From Amoebophrya sp. A120 (taxonomy: Eukaryota; Protista; Dinoflagellata): a DNA stretch of 64,000 nucleotides. A program made the position numbers and the translations under genes. Below the pieces are notes generated by a model. The model was given only the letters and a program-made list of their open reading frames with translations, was not told where the DNA came from and made no database searches. Positions 864 to 58,106 of the stretch are shown one piece after another (the stretch's first letter is position 1; every line of letters begins with the position of its first letter). The stretch spans positions 1,080,968 through 1,144,967 of the forward strand of contig CAJINV010000003.1 of NCBI GenBank assembly GCA_905178155.1. The letters run 5' to 3'.

Positions 864-3405
864 TTAACTCCGTGATCGTCGGCCGGTCCTCAGGGCAGAA
901 TCTTGATTATGCAATGCAAATAAGGTATTGCACACAAACGCGAAGCGCCACGAGCAAGACACACGGACCTCAAGAAACGCGGCCCAAGGCCAAGAAGCGT
1001 TAAAACCTCCTCCAACAAGAAAACCAGCCTCCAGCATCAGTAGTTGCAGTTGGCCCAGTGGTGCTTGCTTCATCAGGTGTGCGCGCAATACATGTACAAC
1101 TTCTGCTTTGCATATTAGCATGGAAAACACGATTTTCCGCCCAAAATCGCCGTAGTGTTCCAGGATTTTCCGCCATTTACTGGCCAGCTTCCGCAGCTCG
1201 TCGTGCTGCGCGTGGAGGGCAGGAGGAAGAAACTGCGTTTTGAACCCGAAAGTCGCATCAATCGGCGCTTCCTCGAACTCCAGCGGAATGTCGCAGAAAC
1301 CCATGCACCCGGGCTGTGCCTGTTTCGCGACCCGGGTGGGTTTCTTGTCCGCGGTAGAGGGGTGGTTTCCCGCCTCCGTAACCAGCATGTGCAGCCCGGC
1401 GGACTGCAGCTCCTGCCCGAAAGATCCGATGAACCGCGCCGTGCCGCAGGGGGTTTCGGAGGTCGTCGTTGAGCTTGAGGAGGAGGCCTTCAACATACTC
1501 CCATCGGCGGGGCGGTCCAGGATCCTTTTACTTTCGTCTGCTCCCTTGTTCATCAGATCCACTAAAAAAACCGCGAGCATGCCGATGTCCACCTGCTTGC
1601 CGAACCGAACCGGATCGGGCTGCTCCAAGATGCGGGCCTTGTAGGTCCCGAGCCGCGTAATTGGGTTCAACGTCTTTTCGCGCAGTTCCCGCGCCGCGTT
1701 CTGCTCCTCCGGCGACGGCATCTTGAGCATCGTCCGAATGTAGTCCGACAACCGCCTCCCGCGGTTTTCCTTCTTCTTGCTGAACACCCCGGGTTTGCCC
1801 AGGACGTCGAAATGGTGGTCGATTTGCTATCAAATGCAAATGCTTATGCCTGGGTCTGGAAGGTTGCAAATTGTCGTGCTTTCTTCGGATCATAAAAAAA
1901 CTTTCATGGCGTGACCAGGAAGAGGAGTCCAGTCTGTGCTACGCGGGAAGCGAGGGCATTGATTTGTCATCCATGCGGAGCGAATAAGTACTTACGCATC
2001 AGGATGCCCTCCAAGAAACAGAAGCCGGCGACGCTTACGCTAGGTCATGCATTACAAACATCATGGGCCACACACAACTTGCATGACAAGCCTGGCAATC
2101 TTCCAGGCTCGGGCATATTTGCACGCGATATCTGTTCGAAGTTCACAAGTTCCGGCAGGAACGAGTGCTCTTGCGTCGGCGGGTTGTCATCTGAAGCACA
2201 CGAAAACTCCCCGATCTGCACCCGGATGCCTTTGCCGCCGTCTGTGAACAGATGGAGCAGGGTATCTTCCGTGATGTCCCTGTGATAGACATCATTCACA
2301 TGGAGTATCAAATGTAAAAATGTCTGCGTCTGGAAGAATCCAAGTTTGTCATGCCTGTCTGGCATGACTCTTAAATCTGTCATGCACATTACCAAAGAGC
2401 CCCACTTTTCTGTCATGCAGAGACGTAGTTTGTCACGCAGAATAGGCAACATCTAGAAGCTCACAAACTTGTCATGCTGAGCCAGCAATTGTCGCCTCCT
2501 CATGATACGGCGCACAGCATCACAAGTCTCCAGACCCAGACACTTTTACATTTGATATGGAGCACATGCAACCCATTCGCCACCTGGTTCGCGATTGGCC
2601 GGATGAAGGCCTTCGTCTGTTCCTCGGTCAACTGCCTTGCCGCGAAGCTCTGAAGCCGCGGAAAAACAGCGAAGACCGTGTCCATCCGCGGGCCATCGAA
2701 GAACATGTGTAAAGGCGCCAGCAGGCCAGCGGGCTTGTGTAAGGCGAGCGAGGCCAGCAGTTGGAGCTCGACCAGCGGTTTGCGCTGGGGCCAGGTTTTG
2801 TCGCGCTGCGCGGTCGACAACACCGGCGACTTGAAGATCACCTCCTTTACCGCTGCTCCTCCGTGGTCGAAGACGATCGGGGGATGCACTTGTGCCACCC
2901 GGTACGTGCTGTACTTCCCAAACTGCACCTGCTTTGAGAAGCTGTGGTAGACTCGCGCTTTTTCCTCGGTAGTCCGCGGAACGGGGAGCACAATCTTCTC
3001 GTTAGCCGGAAAACGCTGAACTGCGGCGGCCCCGCAAGCTGCGAGCAGATCCCCGGGCTCGGTGCCAAGGCACGACACGTCGTCCTCCTGCAGCAATTTT
3101 TCCGGTAGCAATTCCGGAATCAGGTCCGGGTTCAGAGAGCCCGCCAGCGACTCCAGCGCCGATGTGTTGCTAATAGACATAGGGGGGAGAAGGGCGCAGG
3201 AATTGCTAGTTTGCAACGACGGTGCCGCTGCCCCGGTGGACGCCGGCTGCTGATTGTTGCTGGAGGTGCCGAGGGCATCGGCGGATGAAAGAACCCCGTG
3301 GCTTGCTTTTACCGCCCCTGCAGCACGCGGGGGGGCCTTCAAAGACTTAGTTTCAATTTTAGCCCGCTTGGCCCCTGGAGATCGTGATGTGTCTCCTCTG
3401 GCCAT
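864..3405 (-). CDS. Protein kinase-fold protein, probably a pseudokinase; 3 exons separated by two TIR introners
   Basis: ORFs 2500..3405, 2045..2452 and 864..1787 join in frame after element removal: NGLHVLH-VNDVYHRDI and PELVNFEQ-IDHHFDVLGKPG. Motifs: HRDI; EFS at the DFG position; LPE at the APE position; subdomain IX-like QVDIGMLAVFLVDLM. Confidence 0.75.
1828..2130. mobile_element. Degenerate family A TIR introner, 303 bp
   Basis: Left end TATCAAATGCAAATGCTTATGCCTGGGTCTGGAAG; right end CTTCCAGGCTCGGGCATATTTGCACGCGATA. Imperfect TSD TTTGC/TCTGT. Removal restores the kinase frame. Confidence 0.75.
2306..2557. mobile_element. Family A TIR introner, 252 bp
   Basis: TATCAAATGTAAAAATGTCTGCGTCTGGA ... 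TCCAGACCCAGACACTTTTACATTTGATA. TSD TGGAG at 2301-2305 and 2558-2562. Removal restores LH-VNDVYHRD. Confidence 0.92.
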
Positions 3406-4334: not shown

Positions 4335-4914
4335 CCCGGGGATCCCGCAGTACCCATCGGGAGAAAGGTTTCGCAAGACCGCAAAAGCTGCCAAAACTGC
4401 GAATCCAACTCCCGATCTGTTTCACGGGATCCCCCGGGACCGGGCGGGCCCCGGGGATCCCGCAGTACCCATCGGGAGGCAGGTTTCGCAAGACCGTAAA
4501 AGCTGCCAAAACTGCGAATCCAACTCCCGATCTGTTTAACGGGATCCCCCGGGACCGGGCGGGCCCCGGGGATCCCGCAGTATCCATCGGGAGAAAGGTT
4601 TCGCAAGACCGCAAAAGTTGCCAAAACTGCGAATCCAACTCCCGATCTGTTTCACGGGATCCCCCGGAACCGGGCGGGCCCCGGGGATCCCGCAGTACCC
4701 ATCGGGAGAAAGGTTTCGCAAGACCGCAAAAGCTGCCAAAACTGCGAATCCAACTCCCGATCTATTTTACGGGATCCCCCGGGACCGGGCGGGCCCCGGG
4801 GATCCCGCAGTACCCATCGGGAGAAAGGTTTCGCAAGACCGCAAAGGTTGCCAAAACTGCGAATCCAACTCCCGATCTATTTTACGGGATCCCCCGGGAT
4901 CGGGCGGGCCCCGG
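4335..4914. repeat. Tandem array of 5 x 115-bp GC-rich units, each an imperfect inverted repeat
   Basis: GATCCCGCAG recurs at 4341, 4456, 4571, 4686 and 4801. The copies are nearly identical. Confidence 0.95.
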
Positions 4915-23063: not shown

Positions 23064-23582
23064 CACAACTTTGAAGGAAAAAACGCGAAACCGATCCAAG
23101 AAGGCAGCCGTCTCCTGCAGTCCTCATTTACTGCACCTGTTGCGCTTGTGCGTAGTACGCGCAAATGTTTTTCTTGCGCTGAAATAGTTTCGGGTTATCT
23201 TGATCTTTCCTCAAAAAAACTCTCTCTCTGAAGAACACGACGGATCGAACTCCCGTTGAAAAGGAGAATATGCTCCGTCCTGTCGGAATAAACCAAGTTG
23301 ATATTAGACTCTTCTTTCAAAATTTCTATTTCGCACGGGAAACAGTCACACTTGTTCTTACCCTTACGGGAGATGAAAACCTTGATTTTGTTGCGCTCTT
23401 GGAATACATTATTAGGGGAGATACTTACTGTTATAGTCTGAATCTATTGTCCAGGGAACAAAAAAGCTACTCTACTACACGAGTATCAAAGGATGAAGAA
23501 GGGTGGACAACTCTATTGGAGAAAAAAATATCAGGTGAAGGGTAGTTGTAGAAGCAGAAAAGTAAAGACATTGCCTGTCCTT

Positions 23583-26500
23583 TCACCAAAATTTGCCCTT
23601 GCCTTTTCGATTCGGGCGCGCAAAACCCGTCATTTCTGCCCACTTGCCCTCGGCCCGCCTCCGGTGGTAGTGGGCGCCCTTTTTGACGCCCTTCCCCTTT
23701 CCCCAGATTAACCGCCCCTTTCGCGACGGCGGTGCTCCCTTGACCCAAACGGGAGCGTCCTTGTAACTGAGCGCTCCCGCGTCGACCCAGTTGGACCCGA
23801 AGGTTCCCCCCGTGAAATTCACCATCCCACCTCCCAGGATGTTTCCCTTATAGCCCCCAGCGAACCTTGGCAGGTTTTTGGCGAACCCGCAGGACCGGCC
23901 CCGCTCCGCTTCGGAAACGAGGCAATGCAGGTCCCCGTTTGTCCCCTGCGGCCCGATGAGCAGGAGCAGGCAGGGGTAAAACACCAAAGACATCAGCGCC
24001 GCGTACAGAATGGTGAAGAACATCGCGGCGCCGAGGCGCGTGAAAACGGAAACGTTGCAGAGGCGCCACAGCACCAGCGCCGTCGAAGCGGTTGTGACGA
24101 AGCCGGCCACGATCGACGGGCCCATCGACTGCATCGCGAATTGCACGCGGGGCCTCCGCCCGTAGAGCCCGTGGTTCCGTCCCCCCTCAATGTAACCGGT
24201 GCTTAAGTGCAGGATGTAGTCCATGGTCAGGCCAATCGCGATCAGCACGGCTAAGCTCTCGACGAGCCCGAACTCGGAGTCCATACTAATCAGCGTGGCG
24301 ACGACCATTTCCACGACGAAAAACGCGACCAGGTTCGCAAAGATCGTCACGATCCAATTCCGCGTGGCCAGGAGGACGGCGAGGAACACCAATGGGGTGG
24401 CCCACGCGATGCCGACAAAGTAGGAGATCGACACTTCCTTCATCGTCTCGTAAAACTGATAGCCCGTCGAGTACTGGTGCGCAAACCCCGCCTTCGCCGG
24501 CGCAATCAGGTTGAAATGGTCCAGAACACTCTGCACCGCTTCTGAAATCCGCTCGGCGTCGTCAAAGGGGATGTGCCGCAAAGAGGAAAAGGGGACAGAA
24601 AATTTCAATCCGTACATGGCGAAATTAGCCGAATTGATCCTGGTTTCGTCAAAATATAATCCGCCTCCGTCCTCGGTTGTGGACAGTAGAACGGGTACTT
24701 GGTCCGCGTCTTTATTCCCGTATTTCGCCGGGGGCTGGCAGGCGGAGGCACCGCTGCTCCAGGTGGTCGAGCCCCAGCACTGCGGACCGGTAACGTCGTC
24801 GCTTTCCAGTTTTCGCGCGGCACGCACGAATTGGTCCGTCCACGCCGGCCCCTGGTACACCGTGGTTGCGTCGGGCCGCTGGAAAAAGGCCGACTCGCCG
24901 CTGGCGGGGCCCCCTTGCGCGACGCGCTCCGTTGCGTAGGCCCGGTGGTAACCGCGAACCAAAGTCGCTCCGCCGGCCAACTGCCGTTTGGTTAAGAGGA
25001 AGCTCGCTGTGCTATCATCTTCGGAGGACTGGTAGTTGACGACGGGCAACGTGGTGTAGTCAAAGTCTTTGGCAAAAATGGTTTCTTCGGTTTGTTGCTG
25101 CACGACCTCTAGCACTGTGCGAAACGGACAGCGCAGGCTGTTGTCCACAAACGAATCCGTTTTATCGTTGAAGCTAGTCTCTAAACGTTTCCCCAGCTGC
25201 AGAATGTGGCGCACACTCTCGGGCGCGAGCAGGTCCACGGCCGGGTTTTTGTTCAGTTGCGGGTAGTTTCCGGAACTTTCGTCCCACTCCGGCAGCCACC
25301 GGGAACTTACGGTGGAGTCGCCCCCTTCGACCCACACCTCCTCCCTCACCCCCCAGAACACGTAGACCGTGTGGTTATTATTGGAAGACGGGAAATGGTG
25401 CCCCACCTCGTCCAAAATATCGCGCTCGTTGTACATGTGGGTTTCCGGGAAAAAGGACACGGGCTTCTCCGGGTAGTCAATCTGGCCGACGACGACGAGA
25501 GAAATGATCACCAGAATCCCCATCCCGAGGACAATCCCCATCGCCGGCGGGTAGCTGCACGCCGGGGTCGCGCGCAGATCCGCGTGCGCCGGGTTTATGT
25601 CCTCGTACGACTTGCCGAACGTTCCCGTGTACAAACCGCATAGCTCCTTCATGAACTTCGCCTTGGCCGAACGAAAATTTTCGTAGTAGTAATCGTTCCG
25701 CACGCCCCACAGGTCCTTTTTCGGCAGCGCGGAAAGGAGCGGGGAGGCGTGGAGGTACTTCAGGTAAGCGCTGAGAACCGCGGGCGCCACCACGACGGCC
25801 AGGAAATAGTCCGCGGTTAATAAACATGCCGTCAACAACCCGAGGTGGACCACGCCCGCGAAACTGCTGCTCAGCATCGCGAGGAAGGCGATGATAGTGG
25901 TGAAGGAGGTGGTGAAGATGCTCTTGTTGCTCCGGCGCAGCGCGCGGCGCAAAGCGATGTAGATGCGCACCTCTGTGTAGGCGGCTGGCCGGCCGGCGTT
26001 CAGGCCGTACTTGAAAGACTCCCGGGCCTCCCAAGCCAAGTCCGGATCATCGGTAACCGCCATGTATTACAGTGAAAAGTGCCCCCCCACCCCTGAAATT
26101 GTGATGCGAAGTTTCCACATGAAAACTGTTTGTGATGCATGAAAGGACTATGAATCTTTCTGATGCAGAGCCTAGGCGTGTATCGCATCGCTTGCATGAC
26201 AAGCGCCACCCTTGCTGGGGTCTTTTGCAATACAAATTTTCGCTATTCACGATTGGAAACCTGTCATGCTGATAGATGCAAGAGGGCGAGTGTTTCATTT
26301 GGAAAGGTTTGCAATACAAATGCTCCCAAGTTCGGGGGTGGGGGCATTTTTCATTGTAATACCATGGTTTGGAGCTTCGCATCTCCGTCCGGAACGTCGT
26401 GTCGCGCGTCCGGCAGCTCCTGTCGTAAAGTTTCGAACAGGACAAAGAAGTCGTCCGTGCCAACGGCGAAGAGGACGAAAAACGCAAAGTACATCACCGG

Positions 26501-28587
26501 GTCGAAGTAGCTCCGCCAGCAGACGTAAAAGTAGAGAAACATCCCCAGGCACAGGCTCGACAGCTGGAGTAAGAGCAGGTTTAAAATGCAGAAGGGGCTG
26601 AAGGTGAAAGCGTAGGTGATCACCACGATCGCGATCAGCGTGAACGGCAACCCGACCGCCACGTCGCGCGTCGCGAGCGCGTTGAGTTCTTCCCGGCTGC
26701 AGGCGGAATCGTAAAACCGGACCTGATAATCCAGGCTGTTAGGAAATTTATACCATCCCCCGTCGTTATTTAGGCGCGGGGATAAACCGGAGGCATCCGC
26801 GTCCGTGAAGGTCGATGCGAGCAAATCGTTCAGCCGTTCGCAGTAGTCGATGGTGAAATTGCTTTCCCGCGCGAACGTCGTCATCCCGGTGGAGGCCACG
26901 ACGCGGAGGGTAGTTATCAAATGTAAAAATGTCTGGGTCTGGAAGAATGCGCGATTTGTCATGCTGCTTTTCCATGACCCGTGAGGTCTGGAATGCAGGA
27001 CCTAGCATGACAGATTCTGCGACACTTCTCTAATGCCTATCCTGCATGAGAAACTCCCTCCCGACTTGGTCAAAACTGGACGACTTTTGGTAATCACGCA
27101 ACACAGATTTTTGCATGCTGCGGATTTAGCATGACAAGTTGCAATCTTCCAGACCCAGACATTTTTACATTTGATAGTAGTTTGGGCATTACTATCTCCG
27201 ACAACCGGCATTGCTTGTACCGTGCTGAGCGTTGGATCAATGGCGCCGACGGTTTCACAGCTGAGGATGTCGTCGATTTGGTCTTGCACCGCCTTCCAGT
27301 ACGACGCTTCCGCGGCCTCGCGCGCCTGTAAATAGTCGGTGGCATCCACGTCCAGATTCGCCAAGTAGGGCTCCATTTTTTCCTGCTCCAGTCCCCCCTC
27401 GCCCCAGAGCTGGGACGAGGAACTACTAGAGGCCAGCCACGCGAGAAACCCGATCCGACTGCGACTGTACACGAACCGCAGAAAGTAAAAATCCTTTCCC
27501 AACGGGAGGCTCGGCGAGCGCTGCAACGCGCCAAATAACGTCGTCTCCAGCTTGCAGGCAGCCCTCAAAAAGTTCCCCGATTGCAGGAGATTGTTGCCAG
27601 GATTATAGCTGATGTCCCGGTACAGGAGAAAGGGCTGCTGCATCAGCGTGGTCGCGTTCTTTTTGTCCCGGGAATCTGCGGAGAAAGTGGTGTAATCTGG
27701 CCCGTTGCTCGCTTCAAGCCCCTCCCGCCGCCGCAACGTCTGCATGTAGGCGAAGCTGTGTTCATAGTCCACCGGCGGCTTCCCCGAGTCCTCGTCTTTT
27801 AAATGTGAAAAGTAGGCCCGTGCGGCGTCGAACCCGTTGAAGCGCAGGTCCGTGTCGTTCCCGAGAAAAATGTCAGCTTCGGAGACGCCGGCCTGCGCGG
27901 ACGTCGACTTGGGAAACCCGAGCGTCTGCTGGGGCAGCGGGATTTTCAACCTGCCGTCCCACATGGTCCCCGCTTCTTCCCTCCACATCTGGTTCAGCGC
28001 CAACCGGATCTGCACCAGGGGAGATTCCAACGGGGCGTAGGACTATTACAATGAAAAATGCTCCCACCCCAGAACTTGGAAGCATTTGTATATGCAAACC
28101 TTCCCAAATGAAACACTCGCCCTCTTGCATCTATCAGCATCACAGATCGCCAATCGTGAATATGGTGTCCAGACGACAGAAGTTCGTAGTTCGTAGTTCT
28201 ATGACGGCACGCAAGACACAAGAGTTTCGAACATCGAAAGACTAGCAAAAGAGGAAGCTAAGCAGCTCAATGTCCGAAGTATTCGACTTCAGTCTATCCC
28301 TGTCGACCTGTAAAAGGTTAGCATCAAAAGATGAGGAAGAGTTTTAATTTGGAAACTTCGCATCACAAATCATCGAAACTTTGGCGGGGTGGGGGAATTT
28401 TTCACTGTAATAAGGAGAGCAGCGTGTTCCTCCAGTCGTCCGCGTCCACGAGGCTCGAGTCTACGCTGGAAATAGCCACCAGGCCGAGGCCAAGTAGGGT
28501 GAGAAAGTACGTCACTCCCAGCACCACAAAGGGAATCTTCGCCGCCGCGGCGCAGATCGGCCTCTGAACACAATCGCAAATGTACAT
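23583..28587 (-). CDS. Patched/Dispatched-like RND/SSD multi-pass membrane protein interrupted by three TIR introners; start uncertain
   Basis: Four ORF pieces join in frame: LLS-YAPLES, AQT-TLRVV and LQTM-AVTDD. Motifs AVGTDDFFVL and IGLTMDYILH; two hydrophobic TM clusters. Confidence 0.85.
26065..26361. mobile_element. Family B TIR introner, 297 bp
   Basis: TATTACAGTGAAAAGTGCCCCCCCACCCC ... GGGGTGGGGGCATTTTTCATTGTAATA. TSD CCATG at 26060-26064 and 26362-26366. Confidence 0.92.
26915..27176. mobile_element. Family A TIR introner, 262 bp
   Basis: Perfect TIR TATCAAATGTAAAAATGTCTGGGTCTGGAAGA. TSD GTAGT at 26910-26914 and 27177-27181. Confidence 0.95.
28044..28412. mobile_element. Family B TIR introner, 369 bp, inverted relative to 26065..26361
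   Basis: TATTACAATGAAAAATGCTCCCACCCC ... GGGGTGGGGGAATTTTTCACTGTAATA. TSD AGGAC/AGGAG. The first ~120 bp closely match the reverse complement of ~26245-26361. Confidence 0.9.
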
Positions 28588-33713: not shown

Positions 33714-35206
33714 TCATTTCATCATGTAAGCTCCACTGTGCGCACACTTGTCACAGAAGAGTTGTCTGTGCATGGTCATGACCGCAAACTCCGTGTTGTT
33801 GTAAGGCACAACCCCGATCGCCTCGATCTCATCGGGTTCGTACAGCACGCTTTTGCTCGCTTCCTTCAAAATGAAGATCTTGTTTGACTTCTTCAGGAAG
33901 AGCACTTGCACCTGTTAATATGGGATAAGAACCACATGATCATTGTCATTCTATGACAAACTGGTGCCTACTAACTTCATCGGTATAATTTCCTTCAAGA
34001 ATACGGTATTGCTTTATTGAAAGATCTGACCCTTGTAGAAATGAAAAATCCGAATCCCTATCAATCTGTATGACGAGGTCGTACTAGAAGGGGACAATCA
34101 TGAGCATGGGATAACTGCACAGGCCACAAAACAAACCATACTAAGTAAAAGTACCTCCTTGTTCTCGACGTGCGATAGAATGGTTATTTTGTTCGCCTTG
34201 TAGGTAACCATGAGTTCCCGCACGAAGCGCGAAATGGTTTCGAAGAACTTCAAGCCCCCGTTCACCCGATCCGCCAGCTGTACACGGCCGGCGTTTTGCG
34301 TAAACTTGAACTTCGGCACGGGCGCCTTGGGTTGCATCCACAGGATGGCGTTCGCGGGGGTGTTTTCCGCCCATTGCATGTATATTGTGCCGAAATTGTC
34401 CTCCTTGTAACAGAGGTAGCACCCCACACCGCAGGCCTTCAAGTCCGAAATGTCGGCGCCTGTTTTTAGGTGAGGGATGTTATCAAATGTAAAAATGTCT
34501 GGGTCTGGAAGAATCCGAACTTGTGATGCTGCATTTGGATTCCAAAAAAATCTGTATTGCATAAGCAGCAAAGGGAATGCAATTTTGGCTACGGGGAGAG
34601 GGCATTTGCCATGCGGAATGGGCATCACAGAGCCCTCAGAAAGTCTGTGATGCTAGGGCATGCATCACAGACATCATAGCCCATGCAAAACGTGCATGAC
34701 AAGTCTCAGAATCTTCCAGACCCAGACATTTTTACACGTGATAGATGTGGAGAACGCGCAACGAAGTGCAGGCGCAAGGTAAATTTCAAATCGAATCGAC
34801 CGCAAAACCACATAATTACATACTGAAGTAGTGCGATTAATATAGTCCAAGACTTTACTTACCTATGAAGGCCATGATCATGAAATCATCAAAAAAGCCG
34901 AAGTAAATTTTTACCGTCTCCTTTTGCTCTGGCGCCGTCCGCTTTCAAGCCCCTCATGGCTTCGTCCGAGAAGCCTTCCGAGAGGGCAACCGCCCCCCCT
35001 GCGCCCGGAGTAGCAGGACCCAGAGAGAACATCGAGCCTTCCCGGGCGACCCGGCCGTGGGGAGAGCCCACGCCCGCGGGCTCCTTCGCTCTCTCCTCCC
35101 TCGCCGCGGTGGGCGAAATTTGCAGCCCGGCCACCGAGCTTCGCTTTGGAGTGCCCGAGTACGCGGAGGGCGTCGGAGGTCCTTCCGTCGCGAACGACAT
35201 TGTCAT
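33714..35206 (-). CDS. Immune mapped protein (IMP1/IMP2)-like, multi-exon
   Basis: GCYLCY...GTIYMQWAE...PKAPVPKFKFTQNAGR and C-terminal IEAIGVVPYNNTEF resemble apicomplexan IMP1-like domains (recognised by eye). Confidence 0.6.
34481..34743. mobile_element. Family A TIR introner, 263 bp
   Basis: TATCAAATGTAAAAATGTCTGGGTCTGGAAGA ... TCTTCCAGACCCAGACATTTTTACACGTGATA. TSD GATGT at 34476-34480 and 34744-34748. Confidence 0.92.
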
Positions 35207-36066: not shown

Positions 36067-39000
36067 CTATTTGTAGATGATTTTCGCGCTGGACTTTAGT
36101 CGTACGGGGTCGTCCTGCGCCGCGGTTTCAAACTCGACGACAGAGATGGCGTTTTCCCCGGGCTTCAGCATCACGCCCGGGAGGTACAGGGTGTAGATCG
36201 GGCCTGCCGAGTTCCAGTATCTGCCAAGGTGCATGCCGTTCACAAAAACCACTCCTTTGCCAGTCGGAGACGGTGCGTTTGTGGAAAAAAGTGTTCGCAT
36301 GTCCAGAAATGTGTCGGCCAAGAGCTGCGTCGCCGGGTCTTTCGGCTCTGGAACCGAAAAAAAACCGGAGTAAATCGCGGGAAGTCTTGCCGTGGTGTCT
36401 GCGCTTGATGTAGTTTCCTGCTCCCGCTCTTGCTCGTTGCGCTGCCGTTCAGGTTCGTCCTCGCTTTGCTGTACTTGCTCGGTTTGTTCTTCAAGCTTTC
36501 TGCTCATTTGAACGACTACGTTGTTCGACTCCTGTATGCTGGACCCAGCTGCAGACGTAGTTGCTCGCTCTGCAGCGTTTTGTCGGTCCATGAGAGGCCA
36601 AATGTATCGCATTTGCGCCTTGGTAGTGTTGAAGGCCGCCATCTGGGCCGTGGCACGCTGTTGTTGTTTTCCACTCGACCATGTCGTCGTTTTAATCGAT
36701 GCCGCCACAAACTCTTCGTGCTGTGCCGATATCTTGTCGAAAAGTCCTTTGCACAAATGCAACGTACCCGCCGCAGCGGCTTTGAAGCCCGAAATCTGGA
36801 ACCCCTTCCGGTCCTGCAGCATTTGGGGCGAGAAGTTTTGCCGGCCGTAATTTTCCACGACGAAATCAATTATCCTGTGCAAAAGTATCGTACTCGTAGT
36901 AATTACATTCATGCATTACAAATCTTGCTCTTAAGCTAAATCCGCATTACAAATTTTATTTCTCATGCTGAGGAAACTTGTAATGCATTTATACGAGTAC
37001 GATACTTTTGCAGTGCATATCAATTTCCGCGTGGCAATCTTTCTTTTCGATGTGGAACTCCGCAGCTCTGTTTTGATTTTGATTTTGTAAAAGATAAAGA
37101 TCAAGAAGCACCGCATTAAATCGGACAAGCAGTACAGTACTTCTTCAGCAAAGCCCAATTTTGCGCTCCAAACAGAAGTTCAAATCAGCAAACGCAGCAG
37201 TTGTATTCTAGAGTTGAGTACCCACTATCTTCGCGGTCGACCCAGCGGATGAGGTTTCCGCCGACAAAGACGTAGACTCGGTCGTTGGCGTTTGTGATTT
37301 TGAACGAACGCTTCGAACAGCCGGAGGGTGTGGAACGGTACAGGAAAACGTGATCGAATACGTCGTGCTCGTGTGCAAACAGGTCCGCATCCACCGCCGG
37401 TGGGAGTGCTTGACACCGGGCACCGTCACTCACGTCGACCTAAAATCAAATTGACCGTTTGTTTGAATCAACCCGGCTCTTGGTGATCATTTTTGAGATC
37501 TTCATCTTCTACGAGGGGAGGGAGCAGATTATACATATTTGAATGCGGAAACTTCATCAAAACAATACCGCCTTCAGCAGCGAATATGACTCCTTCTGCA
37601 GGACGATATCTGGGTACACGGTCGGTGATGGCAGCAGGCTTCCTGACCTTGATGAAGATGATGTCCTCGTCCCGACTGGAGCACCAGGAGTTTTCCTTGA
37701 TGCGATTTCGTTTTTGATTGCCAGAAATTTGTCTTCATTATCCGATCCGATGCCGTGGCCGCCGTCCTCCGCGATCGGCGCGTTATAATCGTAGCTGGTC
37801 ACCTGCGGTTGCCCGAGGTATTTTTCCTTCAGCCAGGACTCCGATTTCAGATTCAACCCGTTCGTGAAGCCAAAGTTCGTACACCCGAAGGCCATGTAGA
37901 GGTTGAAATTGGGCAAGGACTTCATCGTGCTGATCATCGTTTTCGCGTCCGTGGTGGCGAAGTTGGAATCTTTCCAGGCCGTCATCCACCCCGTGTAGTA
38001 CTCGGACACAAACTCCGGCGACTTTCCCGCCTCGTTCCAGTGGCGCATGTTCATGAAACTGATGCGCGGCGACCAGATGGTCGGCCCGAAATCGCCCACG
38101 TGGTACACGTGCTTGGTGGCGTCGTGGATGCCCCCGGCGTTCAGGAGCAAGTAGTTGTCCGTGGTGTAGTACTGCACTTTCGTGCCCAGGTGCCTCTGCT
38201 GCTCGCTCAACGCCCAATCTATCCTGAGTAAAAACGTACCCACACCATAGTCAAGATGGGGAATCGGCTAGACAAGTCCACAAGTTTTGGCTGTTTTGCA
38301 TGACAAATTTGGATTCGTAGTGCAGTGCTGTTTGAGCTAGCTCAGCAGCATCACAGATCTAGCATACCATGCTGATTGGAGCATGACAAATTGCAAAACA
38401 CGACTAGAAAATGCTTCTCATGGGGCTCCGCATGAGAAACATTTTCAGCATGCAGATTTGCATTACAACTCTGGTGTGGGTACGTTTTTACTCAGGATAC
38501 AATCCATGTATTTCTTATCCTCGTCCGACTTTTGCACGTGCCCTTTGCATTTTGTGCAGGAAATCTAGCCCGGTCCTGGGACAAAAATTTCGGGCGGCTA
38601 ACCTCCCTTTGCATTTCAAAAAGGGAGGCTAGCCCGGTCCCTGGGCAAAGTTTTCGAATGGCTAACCTCCCTGTGCATTTCAAAAAGAGAGGCTAGCCCG
38701 GTCCCTGGGCAAAAATTTCGGGTAGCTAACCTTCCTTTGCATTTCAAAAAGGGGAGTTAGCTCCTGCCCAAAAATTTCAGTGGGCTAACCTAGGTTTGCA
38801 TTTCAAAAACCTAGGTTAGGAAAAATGAATTCGCGCACTTTTGCTAACCGCCCTTTTCAAAATGAAAAAGGCGGGTAGGAAAAAAAATCCGGCCGCTTTC
38901 CCAGGTTCAGCCTGGAAAAGCGGCACATTTTTTTTTCCCCATTCAAATGAAAAGGGCGGTTGGGAAAAAGGCGCCAATTCATTTTTCCTAACCTCCCTTT

Positions 39001-44822: not shown

Positions 44823-45239
44823 GTTGATGTACTTAAAGCCCGAGTAGCCCAACACTGACGTACAACTATCCGGGATGGTTTTTCAGATTCGGGCACAGAG
44901 GAACGTCAGCCGCCACGACTGAGACGCATAGCTCGCGGAAGCGGAGCCGCCAAGTGGTCATTTTGCTGATACTTCATATCACAGGTACGGGGGGGCACGA
45001 TCTGCTGCCATCTGGCGGACGTCTGCCGCTCCTCTTTTGCTCCTACTGCCCACGGAAATTGCGGCTGCGGTAGGCAAAGCTCTAATACAGTGACAGTGAC
45101 AGTGAGTTGGATAGAATATAAAGATGCTCGAGAATGAGGTAGCGGTGGGCCGCGGCCGTCTCTCGGACTTTGGAACAGACAACTCATACGGACTTGGTGC
45201 GAGCTACGGGTCGCTACACCGTACCGCGTAGCACGGCTG

Positions 45240-46740: not shown

Positions 46741-46957
46741 TCGTAGGTCTGCTAGATCTGCTCAAGCTCAACCGCAAGGAAGTACTTTATCTTCAAGAAG
46801 AACACGAACAATGCTTCTACTGCAGCACCCGATGAGTGCTCGACTTCCACCAGCCGTTTCTCGCACAATGTCAATGCAGCTCGCAAGGCAACGTTTTTTT
46901 GCAACACGCTCGTGGAGAGGGCGCGTTCGAATTACATCACTGCAGCTGCAGCACCTT

Positions 46958-49900: not shown

Positions 49901-51540
49901 CGGCCGCGTTCGCACTGCGGGGAGCGACTGCTGTGTGGCGGGGACGCGAGTGTCCCACACACTGAAGGGCGTGCTCAGTATCTGAATTTCTGCGAGGCGG
50001 CGTGGACTTATTTCTTCCTCCAAGTCTGGCAGTTCTTGCTCTGGATCATCGGCTGTAAGTTTTCTCTCTGCAGTGCTACTTGTGCTCGCAAGAACGTCAT
50101 ATTCACGAGCAAAAGCAGCTCCCTGCGTGCTCGCGAAGGCTTCTTGCTCCGCTGAAAGCGGATAAGTTGTATCCGTATCGGGAGAAATAGTAGAACCATT
50201 TTCGTCGCTCATCAGCTCCCTTGGCGTTGGCGGCTGCTCATCCATTATGCCTAGCAACCTCCGTCGCCTCGCAGCTGGGGGCAGGAACGCGAGTTGCGTT
50301 GGCGAAGGCGGCACGAAGGTCTCCCGATAACTCACTCGGCTCTGCAAGTTCAGCTGCACCTGCCGGAGATTAAACGCCGCGCTGCGGTCCGCGTCGAGAA
50401 ACAAGTAGAGCATGACGACGAAGAGCAGAAACAGCAGGCACTCCACGAACCGGCACTGCAAGTCGAACACCGCCTTCTGTCGCTTGATCCGCCCGCGCTC
50501 GATCAGTTCCTGCAGGGTGGGGATTTTCGACGGGTCGACCGGATCCAAGTCAATTTCCATCTGGCCGCGCAGCTTCCGGTGCAGCGCCAGCTGCTGCTTC
50601 AAAAACGGGTGGTTGAAGGAGAAGTCCCGCCATTTTTGCCCCTTGGGCGCCAGCGTGTCCACCACGACCAATTCCGTGGTCGCCTTCACCAGGGTGAACC
50701 GGTAGTACTGGTTTGAGACCACGTAGTCACTGCCCGCGGGCAGGATGATCTCCCCCAGCGTCATGCTGTCCGGTACCAGCTGGCCCTCGCGGTCGAGGAA
50801 AAACACGATCTCCTGCTCCAGCCCCCAGTACTTCGCGGCCTGCTGCTGCAGGCTGAGAATCTTGGCATCCACCTGCACCATGAACACCGCGAGCAAGCTC
50901 CCGCTCCCCTCGACGACCGGCTTCCCCGTAACGGACTTCACGTGGTACACGACCTCCACCTTCATCTCGTTCTTTGCGACGTTGGTCGGGGACGAAGCGG
51001 TTGAAGCATTTCCGGCTCCACCACCTCCACGACCCGCCGACCCTGTCCCTTTCTGCACGAGAAACTGCACCAGCACGTTGTTGCAGCCGGAGTGGCACTG
51101 AAAGAGTGCCTCGTCGGACAGCCCCGCGGACGCGTTTTCCTTCAACTCCGCCAGCCGGCCCTCGGTGGACGCGAGGTCGAGCGTAACGCGCTGCAGATCC
51201 TCCTGCGTTTCCAGCACTTCCTTCCCCTTTTTTTGCACCAAGGCGTTGACGAGCTGGCCCTGCTTCGTGAGGTCGTGGACGATGCGCTCCAGCGTATGCA
51301 CTGCAAAACTATCGTACTCGTACTATTAATCGCAGTCATGCATAACAAATCTCGATCTTAAGGAAAATCCGCATTACATTTCTCATGCTGAGCTAATTTG
51401 TGATGCAATTCATACATACTAGTACGTGCACGACACTTTTGCGATGCATACAGCGCGTCCTTCTGCAAAATGCGGTCCACATGCTTCTCATCCACGATCC
51501 CCTCCACCACGTCCTGCTCCGTGCCCAGTCGCGGATCCAT
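46958..51540 (-). CDS. Polycystin-2/PKD cation channel-like membrane protein; start uncertain
   Basis: FLLFVVMLYLF first TM; FNTFFYNSNEEGLVVSRLLFDIRNSGGV resembles the polycystin domain end; last TM FFLFMVVFLFGEQLLVAIMVN; N-terminal coiled coil. Confidence 0.65.
51295..51450. mobile_element. Family C TIR introner, 156 bp
   Basis: TATGCACTGCAAAACTATCGTAC ... GTGCACGACACTTTTGCGATGCATA. TSD CAGCG. Interior similar to 36871..37019. Removal gives KDAL-ERIVHDL. Confidence 0.9.
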
Positions 51541-52729
51541 GATGTCGGGCAGAAAGTATATTCAAATGCCCCCCTCGACGTCGCCACACAGCTTTTAAAG
51601 GGAGTGAAAGCCAGGAGCGGTCGGCGACCGTACCTGCATGTGCGGCACGTGTCGCCCCGGAACGCTGGATGATGAAATCACCCGCGAAAAATTTTTATCG
51701 AGTCCAGCTCTTACCTCTGCATCTTTGTCCCGAGGTGCGCTTGGTCCTCGCGGCTATCGGTGCCATGCAAACGATCTTCTTGGAAACTCGAGCTGCAAGA
51801 ACAACCTGTAGTGCCTCTCTACAGCGTCGAACATGATGGCAGCCGCCTCTCCTCTGCATTTGGCTCTCGCGAAAACACTCCGAACATGGAATGGGGCCGA
51901 AGATAGAGAGCTGTTCATTTATCGCAGCGCGGTCGCTCTTGATTGTGAATAAGTCGAAATTCGAGAAGATACTCTCCAGCGCACTGTCTCGCCCATAGCG
52001 ACAGTTCACGACGCTCCAAGGGTCATACGCCGGCAGTAGCTCCGATTCCGGTGCAAGGCACGGATTTCCTGGGATCCCATACGTTGGCGCAGCAATCGCA
52101 GCCGAATCTGCTATCTCGCGCAAGCCAGTACAACAGAAAAGCGCCGCTACGACCACGAGATGTGTGTGCCTATCGGCCGCACTGGGAAAATGATGGAATG
52201 GTGAGTAGAGGTAAGTACATGACATTGTCCAAAATGAAACCGCCATTGTACAGGTCTTTCGTACGTACACGTGAGATTTTTTGGCCATCGTACGACATTC
52301 ATCTATTGCCGGTAGCTGGTGGACTAGCTGGTCGAAAAGCTCTGGTGTGTTAAAAGTGTTTGTGATACTCTGCACCGCAAAACAGTTGTCATTGGAAACT
52401 TCTAAAAAAATGTGGCTGCACAGGAGTACAACATAAACTTTCCGCGAATTTCTACTGCATGTCTTCAGGTTGATTGTAACGTAAAGAAACATTTGAAAAA
52501 ACTTTGTAAAGAGGCATTTCTTTGGACATTCTGAGTAAATTATTGCTTGAGTTGTCTATAAACGAAACTTGAACTTGTTGTGAGACTCACTCTACTTGTT
52601 GTTTTACATAGCATACTCTGATGAAATGCGAAATGGACTTGAAACTTCGAAAATGTTCTCTCGAAGCGATTAGCGGCGTAATTCATGGTAAGTACCGCCA
52701 ATGCTTTTCTGCCCTGGTTAAGAAGTATT

Positions 52730-55700
52730 TCACGGCGGCAGTTGCCTCGTATTAGCCAGGGCAGTTTCGAGATTCAAAATGCGGTTGTGGACGCCCTGCT
52801 GTTCCTCTTCTGTGGGCTCCTGCTCTTCCAGCCATTCTGCCTCCCACTGTCGCACGTTGCTCACAATGGTCTCCGCGCACGTGTACGTAGAGGGCATGAT
52901 GATGGCGAACTGGAAGTACAGTGGCGCCACAACGAACTCGATGAATCCCATTTGACTCTGCGGCTTTTTCACTTTCTCCCGGTCGTTCAGCATCTGCACG
53001 GTTAATCCTCGCGACTTCTCCAAATCTCCCTGCAGAAAGAACTCCTCGAGAACCTGTGGACGAACAAGTGTTTTTGAAAGAAAGCTCGCCATCGGATCAG
53101 GGGCGGGAATTACGTCGAAAGAAAACAACGAAATAAGTATGCGCTGGCGAAGTGGTTTCCAACAAAACGAAATTGAAGCTCTTTACGAACACGAATAAGT
53201 ACCAAATAAGCCCACGCTCTGCAAATCGGGAAGGGCTTCATGGGATTGCTGATGTCCGCTGAGTGAAGGATCAAATTCCGCAACAAAGCCGCCTTTTCCG
53301 GCTGTTTCCAGAACTCCACTGCCTCCGCGGGCAGTTCCCATTGCGACTGCTGGCCCAGTGAGAGCGCCGCCCCGGACTGGTAGCTGTGACTTTGCAGCTG
53401 CCAGTACTCGTGTTGCACCAACTGGATAATTTCGCTGTTTTCCTCGTGGAGGAGTTTGATGTGCGACACCATCGGGAAGTGGTTGATCATGTCGGTGTGC
53501 AGAATGGCGTCGATACTGACGCGACGAATCTCCATGTAGTGCGCCTTACTGCAGTTCGCAAAGACCGCGGTCTCCGGATTCACGAAACCCGCCTCAAACA
53601 TGATGGAGCAGTGCATGTTTTCCAAAGGCGACTTGTCATTGTATTTCAGCGCGAGAGGGTCGTTGCTTTCAACCTGAAGATAATAGACTTTTTTACCACA
53701 AACTCTCACTCGATTTCGATCTGCATCTGCTACTTTTCCGAAATACTAGGAGCCAAATGCAACGACAACGACTTCTACTTACTTACACAAAAAATTGCGA
53801 TTTCGATGCTGACTTAACGCATGAAGATGCTCTTTCACAGATCTCTTTATTCCTATTTGTTGTACCAGGAACGGGTTGTTGTAACCCGGGTGCCCGGCGT
53901 CGTGGCAAACCGCGGACAGCAGCATGGCGAACCGATCGGATTTGGAGAAGATGTCCCGCGTCTTGCACAGGTTTAGGAAGCTGTAGACGCCGTGGGCGAC
54001 GTCGACGGCGTGCAGCCAGTTGTGGTAGGGGTTCGTGTTCACGTACCTGCCCGAAATCTCCTCCAGGAACCGCTGAATCCGCCGCTCGTCGATCTTCAGC
54101 GTGTCCTTGATGAACCCACCGAGGTTCATGGCGTCGCCCTGCAAGAACCACAGCACCGCCGCGTAGGTCTGGAAATCGTCCAGCTCGAGCGGGTTGAACT
54201 CGAAAGACTCCACGTCCTCCAACGTCAAACCGGCCTGCATCAGCGCGACCCGCTGCAGCCGGAGGAATTCCTCGTCGCGAATCTCCTCCTCCTCTTCGGT
54301 CTTGTTCGTTTTCTGCTTGTACACCGCGGTCGCCGTGTACTGCTGGATCTCGTCGTCCAGCTAGAGATGAAACGAGTTTTATGTATAGCGGCCCTTTTGC
54401 ATCCTCGCTACACACAAAGAAGCGAGTAGTAGTGGTCTTTTCGTTTTCATCATTGTGAACTGTATTCTATTCATTCTGTTGCGAGAAAAAAAAACACAGA
54501 GGACTGAGTTACTTCTACGCTAACGCTACCAGTGGAGTACCTGATCCTTCATTTGTTTCGCCATGGTGATGTCAGTCAAAAGAGTGAGTTTGGACGCAAT
54601 CTTCGCCAGCAGTGCGGTTTCCATCAGACTGCCGTCAAACTCCATTTCATCCTCCTCGTCGTCGATTTCATCCTCCAGATCGTCGTCCTCGTCGTCGTCC
54701 CGCTTTATTGCCGACGACATGTCGCTCACACTTTTGAACATGGTCGCAGCCAGGTCGCGGACCTGGAAAAATTGTGATGATGATGATCTGCAGGAGGTTG
54801 CTGCACTTGGTCAGAAGTCACTTGCTTCATTAGGCAACCACAACCTATTGCGACAGCGACCAAAAACACGAGGCAGCAATGCCAACGGGAATGGTGAAGT
54901 TGTGAAGCGATAAAGTAAATGGTACCTGGTTCAGTAAACTCTCGAGTGGCAAGAGCACGACTTTCTGTATGACGCCCTGCAAGGCCATACTGAAGACCAC
55001 GAGAAGGGTCATGATGAGCGCAATCAGGACCATGTTCATTCCGGAGTCAAGCTGGTGTGTGTATGTGAAGTTGTACCGCACTTTTGCGATACTGTACGCG
55101 TGCGTGCTATTTCCCAATGGCGCGGGGCCGAGCTTGTCAGTTGCCTCCAGTGTCGGGTGAAGTGTGTTCCACTCAGAGCTGGTAAACAGGATGGGATCAC
55201 TTTTGCGAACAACCTGACATATTCATATTTTTGAGGGCGGGTAATGTCACGATATTAGAAGCGAGTTGAAAAAAACCACAAGACCCCCAGAAAAAAACTA
55301 CGCCTTCAAGCGCCGGAACTCGTTGAAAGTTAGATGCAAGAAGTCCCTGGAGTAGGATGATTCATCAAACACAAACACCACAGGTCAATACGATGTTCCT
55401 ATCATTCGGTTCGCTGCTGCCGTCCCGGCCGAAGGTTTCGAGGTAGTGCGTTGCGCCGGGTCCCGAAATATTATCGGTACCGGGGTACACAACCATCTCG
55501 CGGTAGTACGGCTTGGATTCCCAGACCGGTTCCGTGGTGCCCCAGTAGAATCTCCTTTCCAGCTCGTAAGGGTAGAACTCCTCCTTGGAAAAGAACCTTG
55601 CCATTTCGGCGCTCTTGCTTAGCGTGTCGGTCAGCTGCGTCTGCGCAACCAGATCCGGCCAGACGAGAAGGGACAAGTCCTGTTCCGCCAGTCGCACCGT

Positions 55701-58106
55701 CACGATCAGCAGACCGGGGATGAGAATCACCATGAAAATGATGACGAAGGAGACCCGAATCGAGACGGCTGCATGTAGTCGGTCGGAAATTTTCCGAGCC
55801 GTGCCGGCGTATTCGGAGGTCTGGCGCATGCCCGGCAGCATCTTCAAGATCTTGACCAGCCGAAAGAACCGCCCGGCACGCGCCGCTAGCTTAAACATCC
55901 TGGTTACCAGGATGATGGTCGCGTCACCGTCCTCACTCTGATAAAAATTGCATTTAGGAAGATGAACATTTGTTTGCCTAGCTTTATTCATCTCGCACCT
56001 CCGCACCTTGCAACTACAAACAAGCACTTCACAACAGAAAAACAAGCACAACTATAGTAGTACAAGTAGTGGGTGTGTCTATGAAAAACAACAAGTAGCC
56101 GCAGCCATGAGTACTCTTCTACCTGAGAATAGGTTGCCTCCGCGACGAAGCTGAAGTCTGCGACGACGGAGAGCATTCCGAGGGAGTCCATCCAAAAGAA
56201 AAAGGAGTAGGTATACCCAACCGTCCCGAGGCACTGGACGGATATTTCGAAGAGAAACGCGCCAATGACGAAGCCGAGCAGCACGTCCAGCGCCGTGGTG
56301 TTTGCCACGTCGCCCACCACCCACAGATCCGGGAAGTACAACGCGATCAAAAGGGTGAGCAGCATGACCATCTGGAACGTGGGGTCCTTTTGCATTTCCC
56401 GGGACGGCTTCTCCCAGCTGCGCACCAGGTTGCGCAGCTCCTGCAGCACTTGCGGTTCCCGTTGGAGTAAAACCGCGGACTGCTTCCCCGACCCGGCGGC
56501 ATTGTTCCGATTGAACGGCGAGACCGTGGCAATCACCGAGATGGGGGACGATATCAAGTTGGAGAAACCGCTTGTTGTTCCTTTCGAGTGCTTGCTCGGC
56601 GACGAGGAAGACATCGTTGGGCCGCGGTTTTGCGGCGTTGTGGTTGCGCCGGAGGAAGTGCCGGAAAGCTTCGCGGCCGCGCCGGGGGACGAAATCGATA
56701 AGCCGGCCTCCAAATCCGTGGCACTGCCGGAAGAGCCGAAACCGCCGCCGCCGCCCAGCGCCGCGTTCTCCAAGGCTAAAGCTTGCTGCTCCTGCTTCTC
56801 CTTCTCGAGCATCTCCGCCAACTCCGTTTTCCAATCGCTGGGCTCCATGCCGAACAGGTTCTCCCAGGTGCGCATGTAGTCGTTCAGCAGTAATGTTCGG
56901 TCGTCCTGGGGCCCGAACACCGTGGAGGCAACCTGCACCGGGAGTTTCCCGTCCTCGTCCCGCACAAAGGGGTCCGCGCCCGCGGAACAGAGGGCGGACA
57001 GCATCACCTCGTTCGAAGCAGACGGCAACTTCAGTGCGGTCAATAACGTCGGCCCCCGCGCGGGACTGGCGCCGGCGAGGAGCAGTGCCTGGAGCCCCAG
57101 GTAGTTGTCGTGCTCGATCGCGATTACCATCGGGATTTTGCTGATTCCTAAAGAGTTTGAGGTGGTCCTCGAGCCGTTATTCGCCACCTTCACCGCGGCA
57201 CGGTCCTCGAAGGTGCCGTTCTTGTCTGCGTGATACCAGAGCAGCAGCTCCACCAAAATCACCGAGAACATCTGCTCTCCATGAGTTGCCCCGCCGGAAC
57301 CCGGATTTTTTGCGCTAGACAGGGAAACCGCCGCGCAAAGCGGACTCCAGCCGTAGTGGTCCACAATGTCGTGTCTGGCCCCGCGAGAAAGCAACAGCCT
57401 CGCGGCCGCCACGTTCTTGTTCGCGCACGCAAGCAGCAGCGCCGTCTGCCCGCAGTCTGAAAGCGCATTGACGGAGGCACCGTGCTCCAAAAGCAGCTCC
57501 AGCATGGTTGTGCCGTTGCGCAGTTGCGGCCGAGACGCGACAAAACCTGGGTTACAGGAAGGTCTTTGATTTCAGCTATTTTGACTACACAGACTTCGAC
57601 CTAAAGTGCCTTCAAATCAAGCAACGAAGCAAAAACGGTAGCTGAAAAGGAACCTAGCAGCGTGGTGAAGGAATCGTGAAAGTCGTCGTAGCACGGGACG
57701 TCGATGCAGATGGACATCGTGCCCAGCATCTTCTTAACCTGCGTGACGTCCCCGCTGGCGACCACATTTCGAAGCTTGGTCAACCCTTCGAGATCGTCCT
57801 GCAGCTTGGTCAAAATGACCAAGTTATCACACAGAAAAAAGCTGGCAGGTCACATTTGTAATGCAAAAATAAATACACGAAAAACTCTGCACTGCGTATC
57901 CTAAGCAGCATGCTATGAGGCCGCCCATGACAGATTTTTCTGTGTATTAATTTTTGCATTACAAATATGCCCTGCCAGCTTTTTTCTGTGGGATACAAGT
58001 CCGCGGGGTTCAGCACTTCATCGCCCATCAGCCGGCTCGCGAGAGCAGCGGACGACGCGCCGCCGGCCCCGCCCGCGTCCTGGGGGTTCGCCAAACCCGG
58101 ATCCAT
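52730..58106 (-). CDS. Class I 3',5'-cyclic nucleotide phosphodiesterase with N-terminal ankyrin repeats and a multi-TM region
   Basis: PDE motifs YHNWLHAVDV, HDAGHPG, LENMH, TDM, LHSADISN, EFFLQGD and SQMGFI. Ankyrin GQTALLLAC and GWSPLCAAV. Canonical intron example: 53674..53865. Confidence 0.9.
57825..57995. mobile_element. Family E TIR introner, 171 bp, with ~58-bp TIRs
   Basis: TATCACACAGAAAAAAGCTGGCAGG ... CCTGCCAGCTTTTTTCTGTGGGATA. TSD CAAGT at 57820-57824 and 57996-58000. Removal gives PADL-VILTK. Confidence 0.93.

Follow-up and report, generated by a model that had tools for sequence, protein, structure and literature searches.

In the dinoflagellate Amoebophrya sp. A120, 29,850 repeated introns with non-canonical splicing have been counted by Farhat et al. 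2021 (PMC7789003), where the inverted-repeat motif is given as TAT, seven less-conserved nucleotides and at least three As, and where the accompanying direct repeats are described as 3-5 nt long and variable in position. The whole pattern treated here is already known, as it has been in print for A120 since 2021 (PMC7789003). According to the same authors, strain A25 alone contains putative transposases, which in their view rules out a general transposase-mediated mobilisation (PMC7789003). Dataset S2 of Gozashti et al. 2025 (PMC12130899) carries the label 'TIR DNA / Unknown' for A120 families; for family 38 it notes '5-bp TSD, TA/TA termini', with Ginger as the assigned class. Here the window, i.e. 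the whole 64,000-nt stretch of A120 DNA (contig CAJINV010000003.1, positions 1,080,968 to 1,144,967), was analysed computationally. The TAT...ATA elements present in it were confirmed as a real feature of a known type. With a probability of roughly 0.85 they are miniature inverted-repeat 'introner elements' of A120, which carry a 5-bp target-site duplication (TSD) and are absent, together with one TSD copy, from transcripts.

Element ends and flank repeats

A script scan and an inverted-repeat finder located ten elements in the window, nine of them intact and one decayed (Table 1), among them all eight elements listed in a preliminary description of this DNA. Two further copies, B2 and the decayed A0, were seen beyond these eight. 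Compared with A1 and A3, A2 has its internal part in the opposite orientation, and B2 runs opposite to B1.

Table 1. Elements located in the window, with window positions and flanking repeats
Element	Family	Position	Length	TSD or flanks	Remarks
A0	A-like, decayed	1828..2130	303 bp	TTTGC/TCTGT (3/5 match)	ends TATCAAATGCAAAT... / ...GCGATA
A1	A	2306..2557	252 bp	TGGAG	in minus-strand coding sequence
B1	B	26065..26361	297 bp	CCATG	
A2	A	26915..27176	262 bp	GTAGT	
B2	B	28044..28412	369 bp	AGGAC/AGGAG (4/5 match)	
A3	A	34481..34743	263 bp	GATGT	nested in GT-AG intron
C1	C	36871..37019	149 bp	TCAAT	in GH35 beta-galactosidase gene
D1	D	38220..38499	280 bp	CAATC	within GH35 catalytic domain
C2	C	51295..51450	156 bp	CAGCG	
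E1	E	57825..57995	171 bp	CAAGT	near-perfect hairpin

All 18 ends of the nine intact copies carry a 5′ TAT at positions 1-3 and AAAA at positions 11-14, and the terminus shared across all five families in the window consists of TAT, seven variable bases and AAAA. The 5-bp flank repeat is perfect in eight of the nine intact elements, a 5/5 match being expected by chance in about 1 in 1,000 per element, and agrees in four of five bases in the ninth (B2). Past 5 bp the repeat extends in 2/9 elements on the left and in 2/9 on the right, which is chance level. The preliminary description had claimed TAT...ATA ends common to five families with terminal inverted repeats (TIRs), an A-run from about position 11 and a TSD of constant 5-bp length and varying sequence, and all three claims were borne out. 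On both strands of the window TATN7AAAA was counted 34 times, compared with 4.8 ± 2.0 in 100 block shuffles, and 18 of the 34 sites are paired element ends. For the 16 unpaired sites in the window no inverted partner better than 16/24 was found; they may represent chance occurrences or decayed ends. An Rfam scan of the window yielded nothing at the gathering threshold.

The related set comprised 129 loci (459 kb), which possibly belong to the same organism and hence offer no independent support. Because no match of at least 400 bp was found between the window and these loci, the window's own region is absent from them. Among 219 TAT...ATA pairs in the related contigs, 170 show an exact 5-bp flank repeat and 200 match in at least four of five flank bases; other repeat lengths are far rarer (1-10 pairs each) and 31 pairs are without a repeat. 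In their terminal 10 nt the related pairs fall into 57 variants, and the TSDs of the 170 exact pairs include 147 different sequences. In the 340 related ends, which were pre-selected on TAT and on AAA at positions 11-13, A is found at position 14 in 91%. Moreover, the sub-terminal octamer GCATNACA is present in 166 of 168 related copies; a search of the text and supplement text of PMC7789003 did not retrieve this repeat. The idea of a common end type, exposed in the 459 kb to possible variation of termini or TSD lengths, was not refuted.

Genic setting and mode of spread

All ten copies lie inside minus-strand genes and nine of them break up coding sequence, the sole copy outside coding sequence being A3, which is located in an ordinary GT-AG intron (34459-34913, minus strand). 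Since nearly the whole window is transcribed, the genic location of all copies says little. The window genes form a one-strand cluster, which suggested a kinetoplastid or euglenozoan host; this was rejected on an alveolate IMP2_N domain among the Pfam matches and on the proteins that carry the A120 name.

It had been stated before that the window holds no transposase, and indeed none of its 293 stop-to-stop frames of at least 90 aa gave a Pfam match to a transposase, integrase or recombinase; among the 171 frames of at least 200 aa in the related loci (459 kb) no transposase was found either. In the related loci, long TAT...ATA pairs of 711-3,500 bp were rejected as candidates, since most of them falsely join the ends of adjacent elements and lack a flank repeat. 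Perfect repeats are found only in two related pairs of at least 711 bp, L063:1547-2930 (1,384 bp) and L026:4001-4972 (972 bp), the frames of which matched no Pfam family.

The shared end architecture and the single TSD length fit one transposition chemistry acting in trans for all families. To this extent the earlier proposal of a single trans-acting transposase lineage was upheld, while the enzyme itself was not found in the DNA searched. A single lineage is also pointed to by the uniform 5-bp TSD, by ends and a TSD that match those noted for family 38, and by the near-universal GCATNACA. The elements probably spread as non-autonomous cut-and-paste transposons. The target would be cut with a 5-bp stagger by a transposase whose gene lies elsewhere, and this enzyme would recognise the TAT-N7-AAAA ends, probably together with the sub-terminal GCATNACA repeats. 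The uniform 5 bp over 57 variants, the matching ends of an integrase-related family and GCATNACA provide concrete criteria for a transposase search.

Alternatively, the elements could spread at the RNA level by reverse splicing and reverse transcription, or by another transposase-free route, with the 5-nt repeat originating from the removal machinery. This is regarded as improbable, even though it agrees with the lack of a transposase in the window and in 459 kb of related DNA, with the doubts of Farhat et al. about transposase-mediated spread in A120 (PMC7789003) and with the position of all ten window copies in transcribed genes, the latter being a weak point in a window that is almost wholly transcribed. 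The fixed-length repeat of arbitrary sequence (147 distinct in 170) and the family-specific TIRs, however, constitute the footprint of staggered-cut integration. Additionally, A3 has a perfect 5-bp repeat despite sitting inside another intron, and Dataset S2 (PMC12130899) lists an A120 family of greater length whose termini and TSD are the same.

Absence of the elements from transcripts and proteins

What is missing from public RNA-like contigs, and from two annotated proteins, is precisely the element with one copy of the repeat. The RNA nature of the element-free runs is a guess, none of the listed sources being recorded as RNA, and all contigs derive from libraries made by reverse transcription, a step in which hairpins between short repeats can be skipped; an origin from RNA is indicated because ordinary GT-AG introns are missing from the element-free contigs as well. 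Window frames are 100% identical to P0001 and P0121, annotated as 'unnamed protein product [Amoebophrya sp. A120]'.

For C2, a joint from 51289 to 51451 in runs X5 and X7 skips 161 nt (156 + 5), and for E1 a joint from 57819 to 57996 in run X7 skips 176 nt (171 + 5), with 5 ambiguous letters in each case. The remaining 13 of the 15 joints listed represent same-strand introns of the ordinary GT-AG type. At A3, an X3 joint from 34458 to 34914 skips 455 nt with the ends CT..AC. Record 10 of X3 spans 28038..27177 and 26059..23949; A2 is absent from it, and the 548 nt between its pieces correspond to the exon 26362-26909, a middle piece assigned from its length, so that B1 and one TSD copy are absent too. 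At B2, the aligned piece of the same record stops at 28038, just short of the left flank copy, and removal of the element reopens the reading frame (215 nt upstream, 1039 nt downstream). One X3 transcript is without B2, A2 and B1, and another is without D1 and C1. For C1, a model removing 36866-37019 translates into P0001 over 842/842 aa and agrees with the lengths of the pieces in X3 record 13. Removal of D1 is consistent with the same P0001 model (842/842 aa): an aligned piece of record 13 ends at 38214, the initial 44 nt of the record are as long as 38500-38543, and the A25 orthologue P0002 is aligned unbroken across the element site, from residue 127 to 128. For A1 and A0, the basis is public annotation only. 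Taking out A1 and one TSD copy lengthens the identity with P0121 from 283 to 340 aa and reopens the frame (900 nt upstream, 258 nt downstream), and taking out 308 nt (303 + 5) at A0, the flank differences of which are synonymous in the protein, lengthens it from 340 to 575 aa. The raw RNA runs X9 and X10, labelled as the same species, yielded no more than 6 and 9 reads, every one of them on element sequence, and so carry no weight here. Because five bases are ambiguous, the exact cut register is unreadable, and we infer that the flank mismatch of B2 excludes only the register removing the whole upstream copy.

In none of the nine elements was a GT..AG or GC..AG register found, six registers being possible for each. 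Hairpins are predicted in all nine intact elements (z = −5.4 to −14.4); the RNA of E1 has a folding energy of −99.9 kcal/mol, with z = −14.07 when compared with 200 dinucleotide shuffles, and in the nine elements the outermost mirror pair lies at the first or second element base or one base outside. Removal affects both orientations (A2 vs A1, B1 vs B2), which together with the lack of a GT-AG register argues that structure rather than sequence is read during removal from the RNA. After transcription, the terminal hairpin would juxtapose the two copies of the duplication and would act as the removal signal in its own right, in place of splice-site sequences. The excision machinery invoked in the preliminary description finds a counterpart in the precise removal observed, but the evidence places this removal in the RNA and not in the DNA.

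A short direct repeat, a strong hairpin and the lack of a splice consensus are the signature of template switching. The elements display this signature, and the apparent removal could be a cDNA artefact in which reverse transcriptase jumps the hairpin at the 5-nt direct repeats while the mRNA keeps the elements; all RNA evidence has passed through reverse transcription, and template switching is not mentioned in PMC7789003 as judged by a word search. We consider this very improbable. Left unspliced, eight of nine elements put an in-frame stop within the element, conserved domains are interrupted (GH35 in the window, and in a related contig RPB1, which is split by five such elements, with Pfam domain profiles that continue exactly on their other side), and about 30,000 such repeated introns were counted in PMC7789003; for these reasons a real removal step is needed by the cell. 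Excision from the DNA of expressing nuclei, with transcripts made from a cleaned template as for ciliate internal eliminated sequences (IES), would account for TA-bounded ends and precise removal, but can practically be dismissed, since six exon-element junction pairs are spanned by contigs of the DNA run at a depth of 40-44 against a baseline of about 45, no precise excision is seen among the 15 DNA-run joints listed (of 15 + 168), and the same RNA-like contigs are also without ordinary GT-AG introns.

With removal placed in the RNA, an endonuclease-plus-ligase route independent of the spliceosome is put forward tentatively, at less than even odds; a spliceosome working without U1 comes closely after it as a possible route, and something else accounts for the rest. 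A more far-reaching combination appears unlikely: that one integrase-like transposase lineage with a 5-bp stagger, reading TAT-N7-AAAA and GCATNACA, moves all of the about two thousand A120 'families', and that nothing but the terminal hairpin directs a spliceosome-independent step in which exactly the element plus 5 nt is cut from the RNA and the ends are joined. If true, transposon and RNA-level 'excisionase' would be a co-evolved pair, and the tolerance of tens of thousands of coding insertions would be explained. It is remarkable that mobile DNA sits inside essential coding sequence and, with no splice signals, is removed from the RNA to the exact base.

Comparison with known systems

Ciliate IES and Tc1/mariner elements share with the window elements TA at the boundaries and precise removal. 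They have a 2-bp TA duplication and DNA-level excision, whereas the window elements have a duplication of five variable bases and stay in the DNA, and the likeness drawn in the preliminary description was not supported. Tc1/mariner (IS630) was rejected on the five variable bases, and ciliate IES on the junctions at flank depth, with room left for rare excision. Transib elements have a 5-bp duplication and CACWRTG-like termini; the former agrees with the window elements, the latter do not, as the ends are TAT.

Introners of Micromonas and Aureococcus are likewise TIR-plus-TSD transposons that create introns on insertion, but their borders are canonical GT-AG and partly co-opted from the duplication, as described in PMC7789003, whereas 0/9 window elements are canonical; a spliceosomal introner of this type was rejected for lack of a GT/GC-AG register in the nine elements. 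The non-conventional introns of euglenids and diplonemids (PMC12501133, PMC12621601) are similar in that they have no GT-AG, have base-paired ends, are bordered by short direct repeats and are suspected to stem from miniature inverted-repeat transposons; their hosts belong to another eukaryotic supergroup. The Euglena signature N3-CDG...CH'G-N5-6 (PMC12501133) was rejected as well, since CDG occurs at positions 4-6 in 0/18 ends, which read CAA, CAC, TAC, CCT, CCC or GCA.

Ginger1 and Ginger2/TDD (Bao et al. [quoted passage not shown] Ginger elements, however, are described with TGTNR termini, mostly 4-bp duplications and a target preference (PMC2836005), compared with TAT termini and arbitrary targets in the window, and membership in Ginger/TDD by termini was rejected as the window ends are TAT and not TGTNR. 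By its description, family 38 resembles the five window families in TIRs, 5-bp TSD and TA/TA termini; it is about 808 bp long with ORF fragments homologous to LTR-retrotransposon proteins (PMC12130899), whereas the window elements are non-coding and 149-369 bp long.

The closest agreement is with the A120 introner elements of PMC7789003, which share with the window elements the organism, the TAT + 7 nt + A-run ends, the direct repeats, the hairpin, the non-canonical removal and the high copy number. Terminal motif, direct repeats, non-canonical removal, hairpin and host were all found to agree in the window. By the published description nothing essential differs (PMC7789003): the repeats are given there as 3-5 nt and measure 5 bp here when the elements are delimited as TAT...ATA.

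Shared ends and flanking repeats of the elements

An inverted-repeat finder and a dedicated scan applied to the whole window yielded nine intact elements of 149-369 bp, here named by the letter of their terminal-repeat family. Positions 1-3 read TAT and positions 11-14 read AAAA in 18 of 18 intact ends. The bordering 5-bp direct repeat (the duplication) was perfect in eight of the nine elements, with eight differing sequences, and matched at four of five bases in the ninth. The word TATN7AAAA was present at 34 sites in the window compared to 4.8 ± 2.0 in shuffled sequences. Because of these ends, flank repeats and word excess, the preliminary description of five families with common TAT...ATA ends and a 5-bp duplication is accurate and lies far above chance. 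Whole-element identity was 57-74% within families and 33-56%, about background, between them, and the terminal repeats were near-identical inside each family. Sixteen of the 34 sites were unpaired (e.g. 20548, 23514, 33334 and 52615; about 5 expected by chance for all sites); these words possibly derive from element ends that have decayed. Positions 4335-4914 hold five 115-bp units in tandem, 95% similar to one another.

Positions of elements in the window and in the RPB1 locus (L026, a related metagenome locus)
Feature	Location	Positions	Method
A0, decayed A-like copy	window	1828-2130	
A1, family A	window	2306-2557	inverted-repeat finder and scan
A2, family A	window	26915-27176	inverted-repeat finder and scan
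A3, family A	window	34481-34743	inverted-repeat finder and scan
B1, family B	window	26065-26361	inverted-repeat finder and scan
B2, family B	window	28044-28412	inverted-repeat finder and scan
C1, family C	window	36871-37019	inverted-repeat finder and scan
C2, family C	window	51295-51450	inverted-repeat finder and scan
D1, family D	window	38220-38499	inverted-repeat finder and scan
E1, family E	window	57825-57995	inverted-repeat finder and scan
RPB1 element	L026	1256-1547	
RPB1 element	L026	2978-3239	
RPB1 element	L026	4001-4972	
RPB1 element	L026	5517-5756	
RPB1 element	L026	6456-6777	

The 31-base left end of family A matched at least 130 stretches in one metagenome contig set, and 129 loci among the matches listed (459 kb, partly overlapping, duplicates dropped by flank key) were used as a related sample, which possibly stems from the same organism and is not independent of the window. 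These 129 loci held 219 TAT...ATA pairs, with an exact 5-bp flank repeat in 170 and at least four of five matching bases in 200; other repeat lengths were found in at most 10 pairs each, and 31 pairs were without a repeat. Among the 170 exact-repeat pairs the 10-nt termini came in 57 variants and the duplication in 147 different sequences, a strong target preference being absent. All five window families recurred. The RPB1 gene (L026:117-7550) carried five TAT...ATA elements with 5-bp repeats, and Pfam profiles resumed exactly across several of them, e.g. Rpb1_3 at 60|60 and Rpb1_5 at 25|24.

The octamer GCATNACA, counted on either strand, was found in every window copy and every terminal-repeat family. 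The ten window copies, 2,502 nt in total, contained it 33 times and the other 61,498 nt of the window 6 times, a 135-fold higher density inside than outside. In the related loci it was present in 166 of 168 elements (12.9 per kb inside versus 1.46 per kb outside) and peaked 30-49 nt from the nearer element end. Families A and C differ in which way the octamer faces relative to the end. A word search of the main and supplement text of PMC7789003, figures aside, did not find it.

Host genes and removal from transcripts

The genes of the window form a one-strand cluster, the minus strand carrying nearly all long frames, and the elements are located within these minus-strand genes, a location that the preliminary description did not see. 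Pfam matches in the window were eukaryotic, the alveolate IMP2_N domain among them. Two annotated proteins, both 'unnamed protein product [Amoebophrya sp. A120]', were 100% identical to window frames: P0001 (842 aa, GH35 beta-galactosidase) and P0121 (848 aa). Removal of an element plus one repeat copy reopened the minus-strand frame for A1 (900 nt upstream, 258 nt downstream), B1 (635 and 2479 nt), A2 (861 and 561 nt) and B2 (215 and 1039 nt), and eight of the nine exon-interrupting copies would bring in an in-frame stop, located within the element itself, if left unremoved. With A1 and A0 each removed together with 5 nt, the identity to P0121 grew from 283 residues to 340 and then to 575.

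The public sequencing runs included one DNA-like set with 97% of the sampled words and several transcript-like sets with 33-54%. Transcript-like contigs exactly skipped C2 plus 5 nt (161 nt, two runs) and E1 plus 5 nt (176 nt, one run), the five ambiguous letters being the duplication in both cases. In the 22000-40000 region, one transcript-like contig carried 28038..27177 and 26059..23949 separated by 548 nt, the length of the exon between A2 and B1; with the middle piece thus inferred from its length, one transcript lacks all three of B2, A2 and B1. A second contig was consistent with removal of D1 and C1, and a 455-nt canonical intron encloses A3. In 44001-64000, 13 of 15 joints listed for the transcript-like contigs were ordinary GT-AG introns of 107-201 nt, all on the minus strand, in one unidirectional gene cluster; the remaining two are the C2 and E1 joints. 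DNA-like contigs spanned the exon-element junctions at a depth of 40-44, equal to that of unique flanks, and broke about 25 nt into each element, as expected for a high-copy repeat. Two raw RNA runs labelled as the same species (X9 and X10) gave only 6 and 9 reads on 22000-40000, all within element sequence, which points to another strain or to very low coverage.

A GH35 gene model removing C1 plus 5 nt, D1 plus 5 nt, three GT-AG introns and one 1,073-nt non-canonical intron translated exactly to P0001 (842/842 aa), and the orthologue of strain A25 aligned across D1 without a break. The annotated protein was reproduced only if the 1,073-nt intron was removed. This intron has neither terminal inverted repeats nor a GT-AG register; a perfect 36-nt direct repeat marks its borders (38508-38543 = 39581-39616), and it holds a tandem array (64 bp x 3.9, 38565-38809) and, at 38802-39005, a hairpin whose arms measure 58 nt.

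Removal signal

Each element allows six cut registers, none of which was bounded by GT..AG or GC..AG; AT..AC occurred in two cases, which may be chance. A long hairpin was found in all nine elements (z = -5.4 to -14.4), and since its pairing extends to the first or second base of the element, the duplication copies sit at the stem base. In family A, A2 points the opposite way to A1 and A3, as B1 does to B2 in family B; apart from A3, inside its canonical intron, family A and B copies of either orientation were removed as introns of their own, which makes the signal symmetric. That copies are removed whichever way they point, with no splice signals, speaks for a structure being recognised.

Transposase and relation to published elements

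The earlier statement that the window lacks a transposase holds for its 293 frames of at least 90 aa, and none was found in 171 frames of at least 200 aa from the related loci. Nor was a transposase found in the frames of two long TAT...ATA elements with perfect duplications in the related loci. The constant 5-bp duplication, shared ends and sub-terminal repeats favour a single transposase lineage; Farhat et al. (2021, PMC7789003) were sceptical of transposase-driven spread.

For A120 the observation is already in print in that work; the feature is real, striking and previously known for this genome. More than 60% of A120 introns were described there as non-canonical, 29,850 as repeated (1,954 families, 17% of the assembly), with direct repeats of 3-5 nt, hairpins, an undetected U1 snRNA and, in a supplement legend, an example with 5-bp direct repeats. 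In Dataset S2 of Gozashti et al. (2025, PMC12130899) most A120 families are labelled 'TIR DNA / Unknown', and family 38, with '5-bp TSD, TA/TA termini' and ORFs homologous to LTR-retrotransposon proteins, is classed as Ginger. Ginger proper has TGTNR ends and mostly 4-bp duplications, those of TDD-4 and TDD-5 being 5 bp (PMC2836005). Compared by description only, family 38 has its duplication length and TA ends in common with the window elements.
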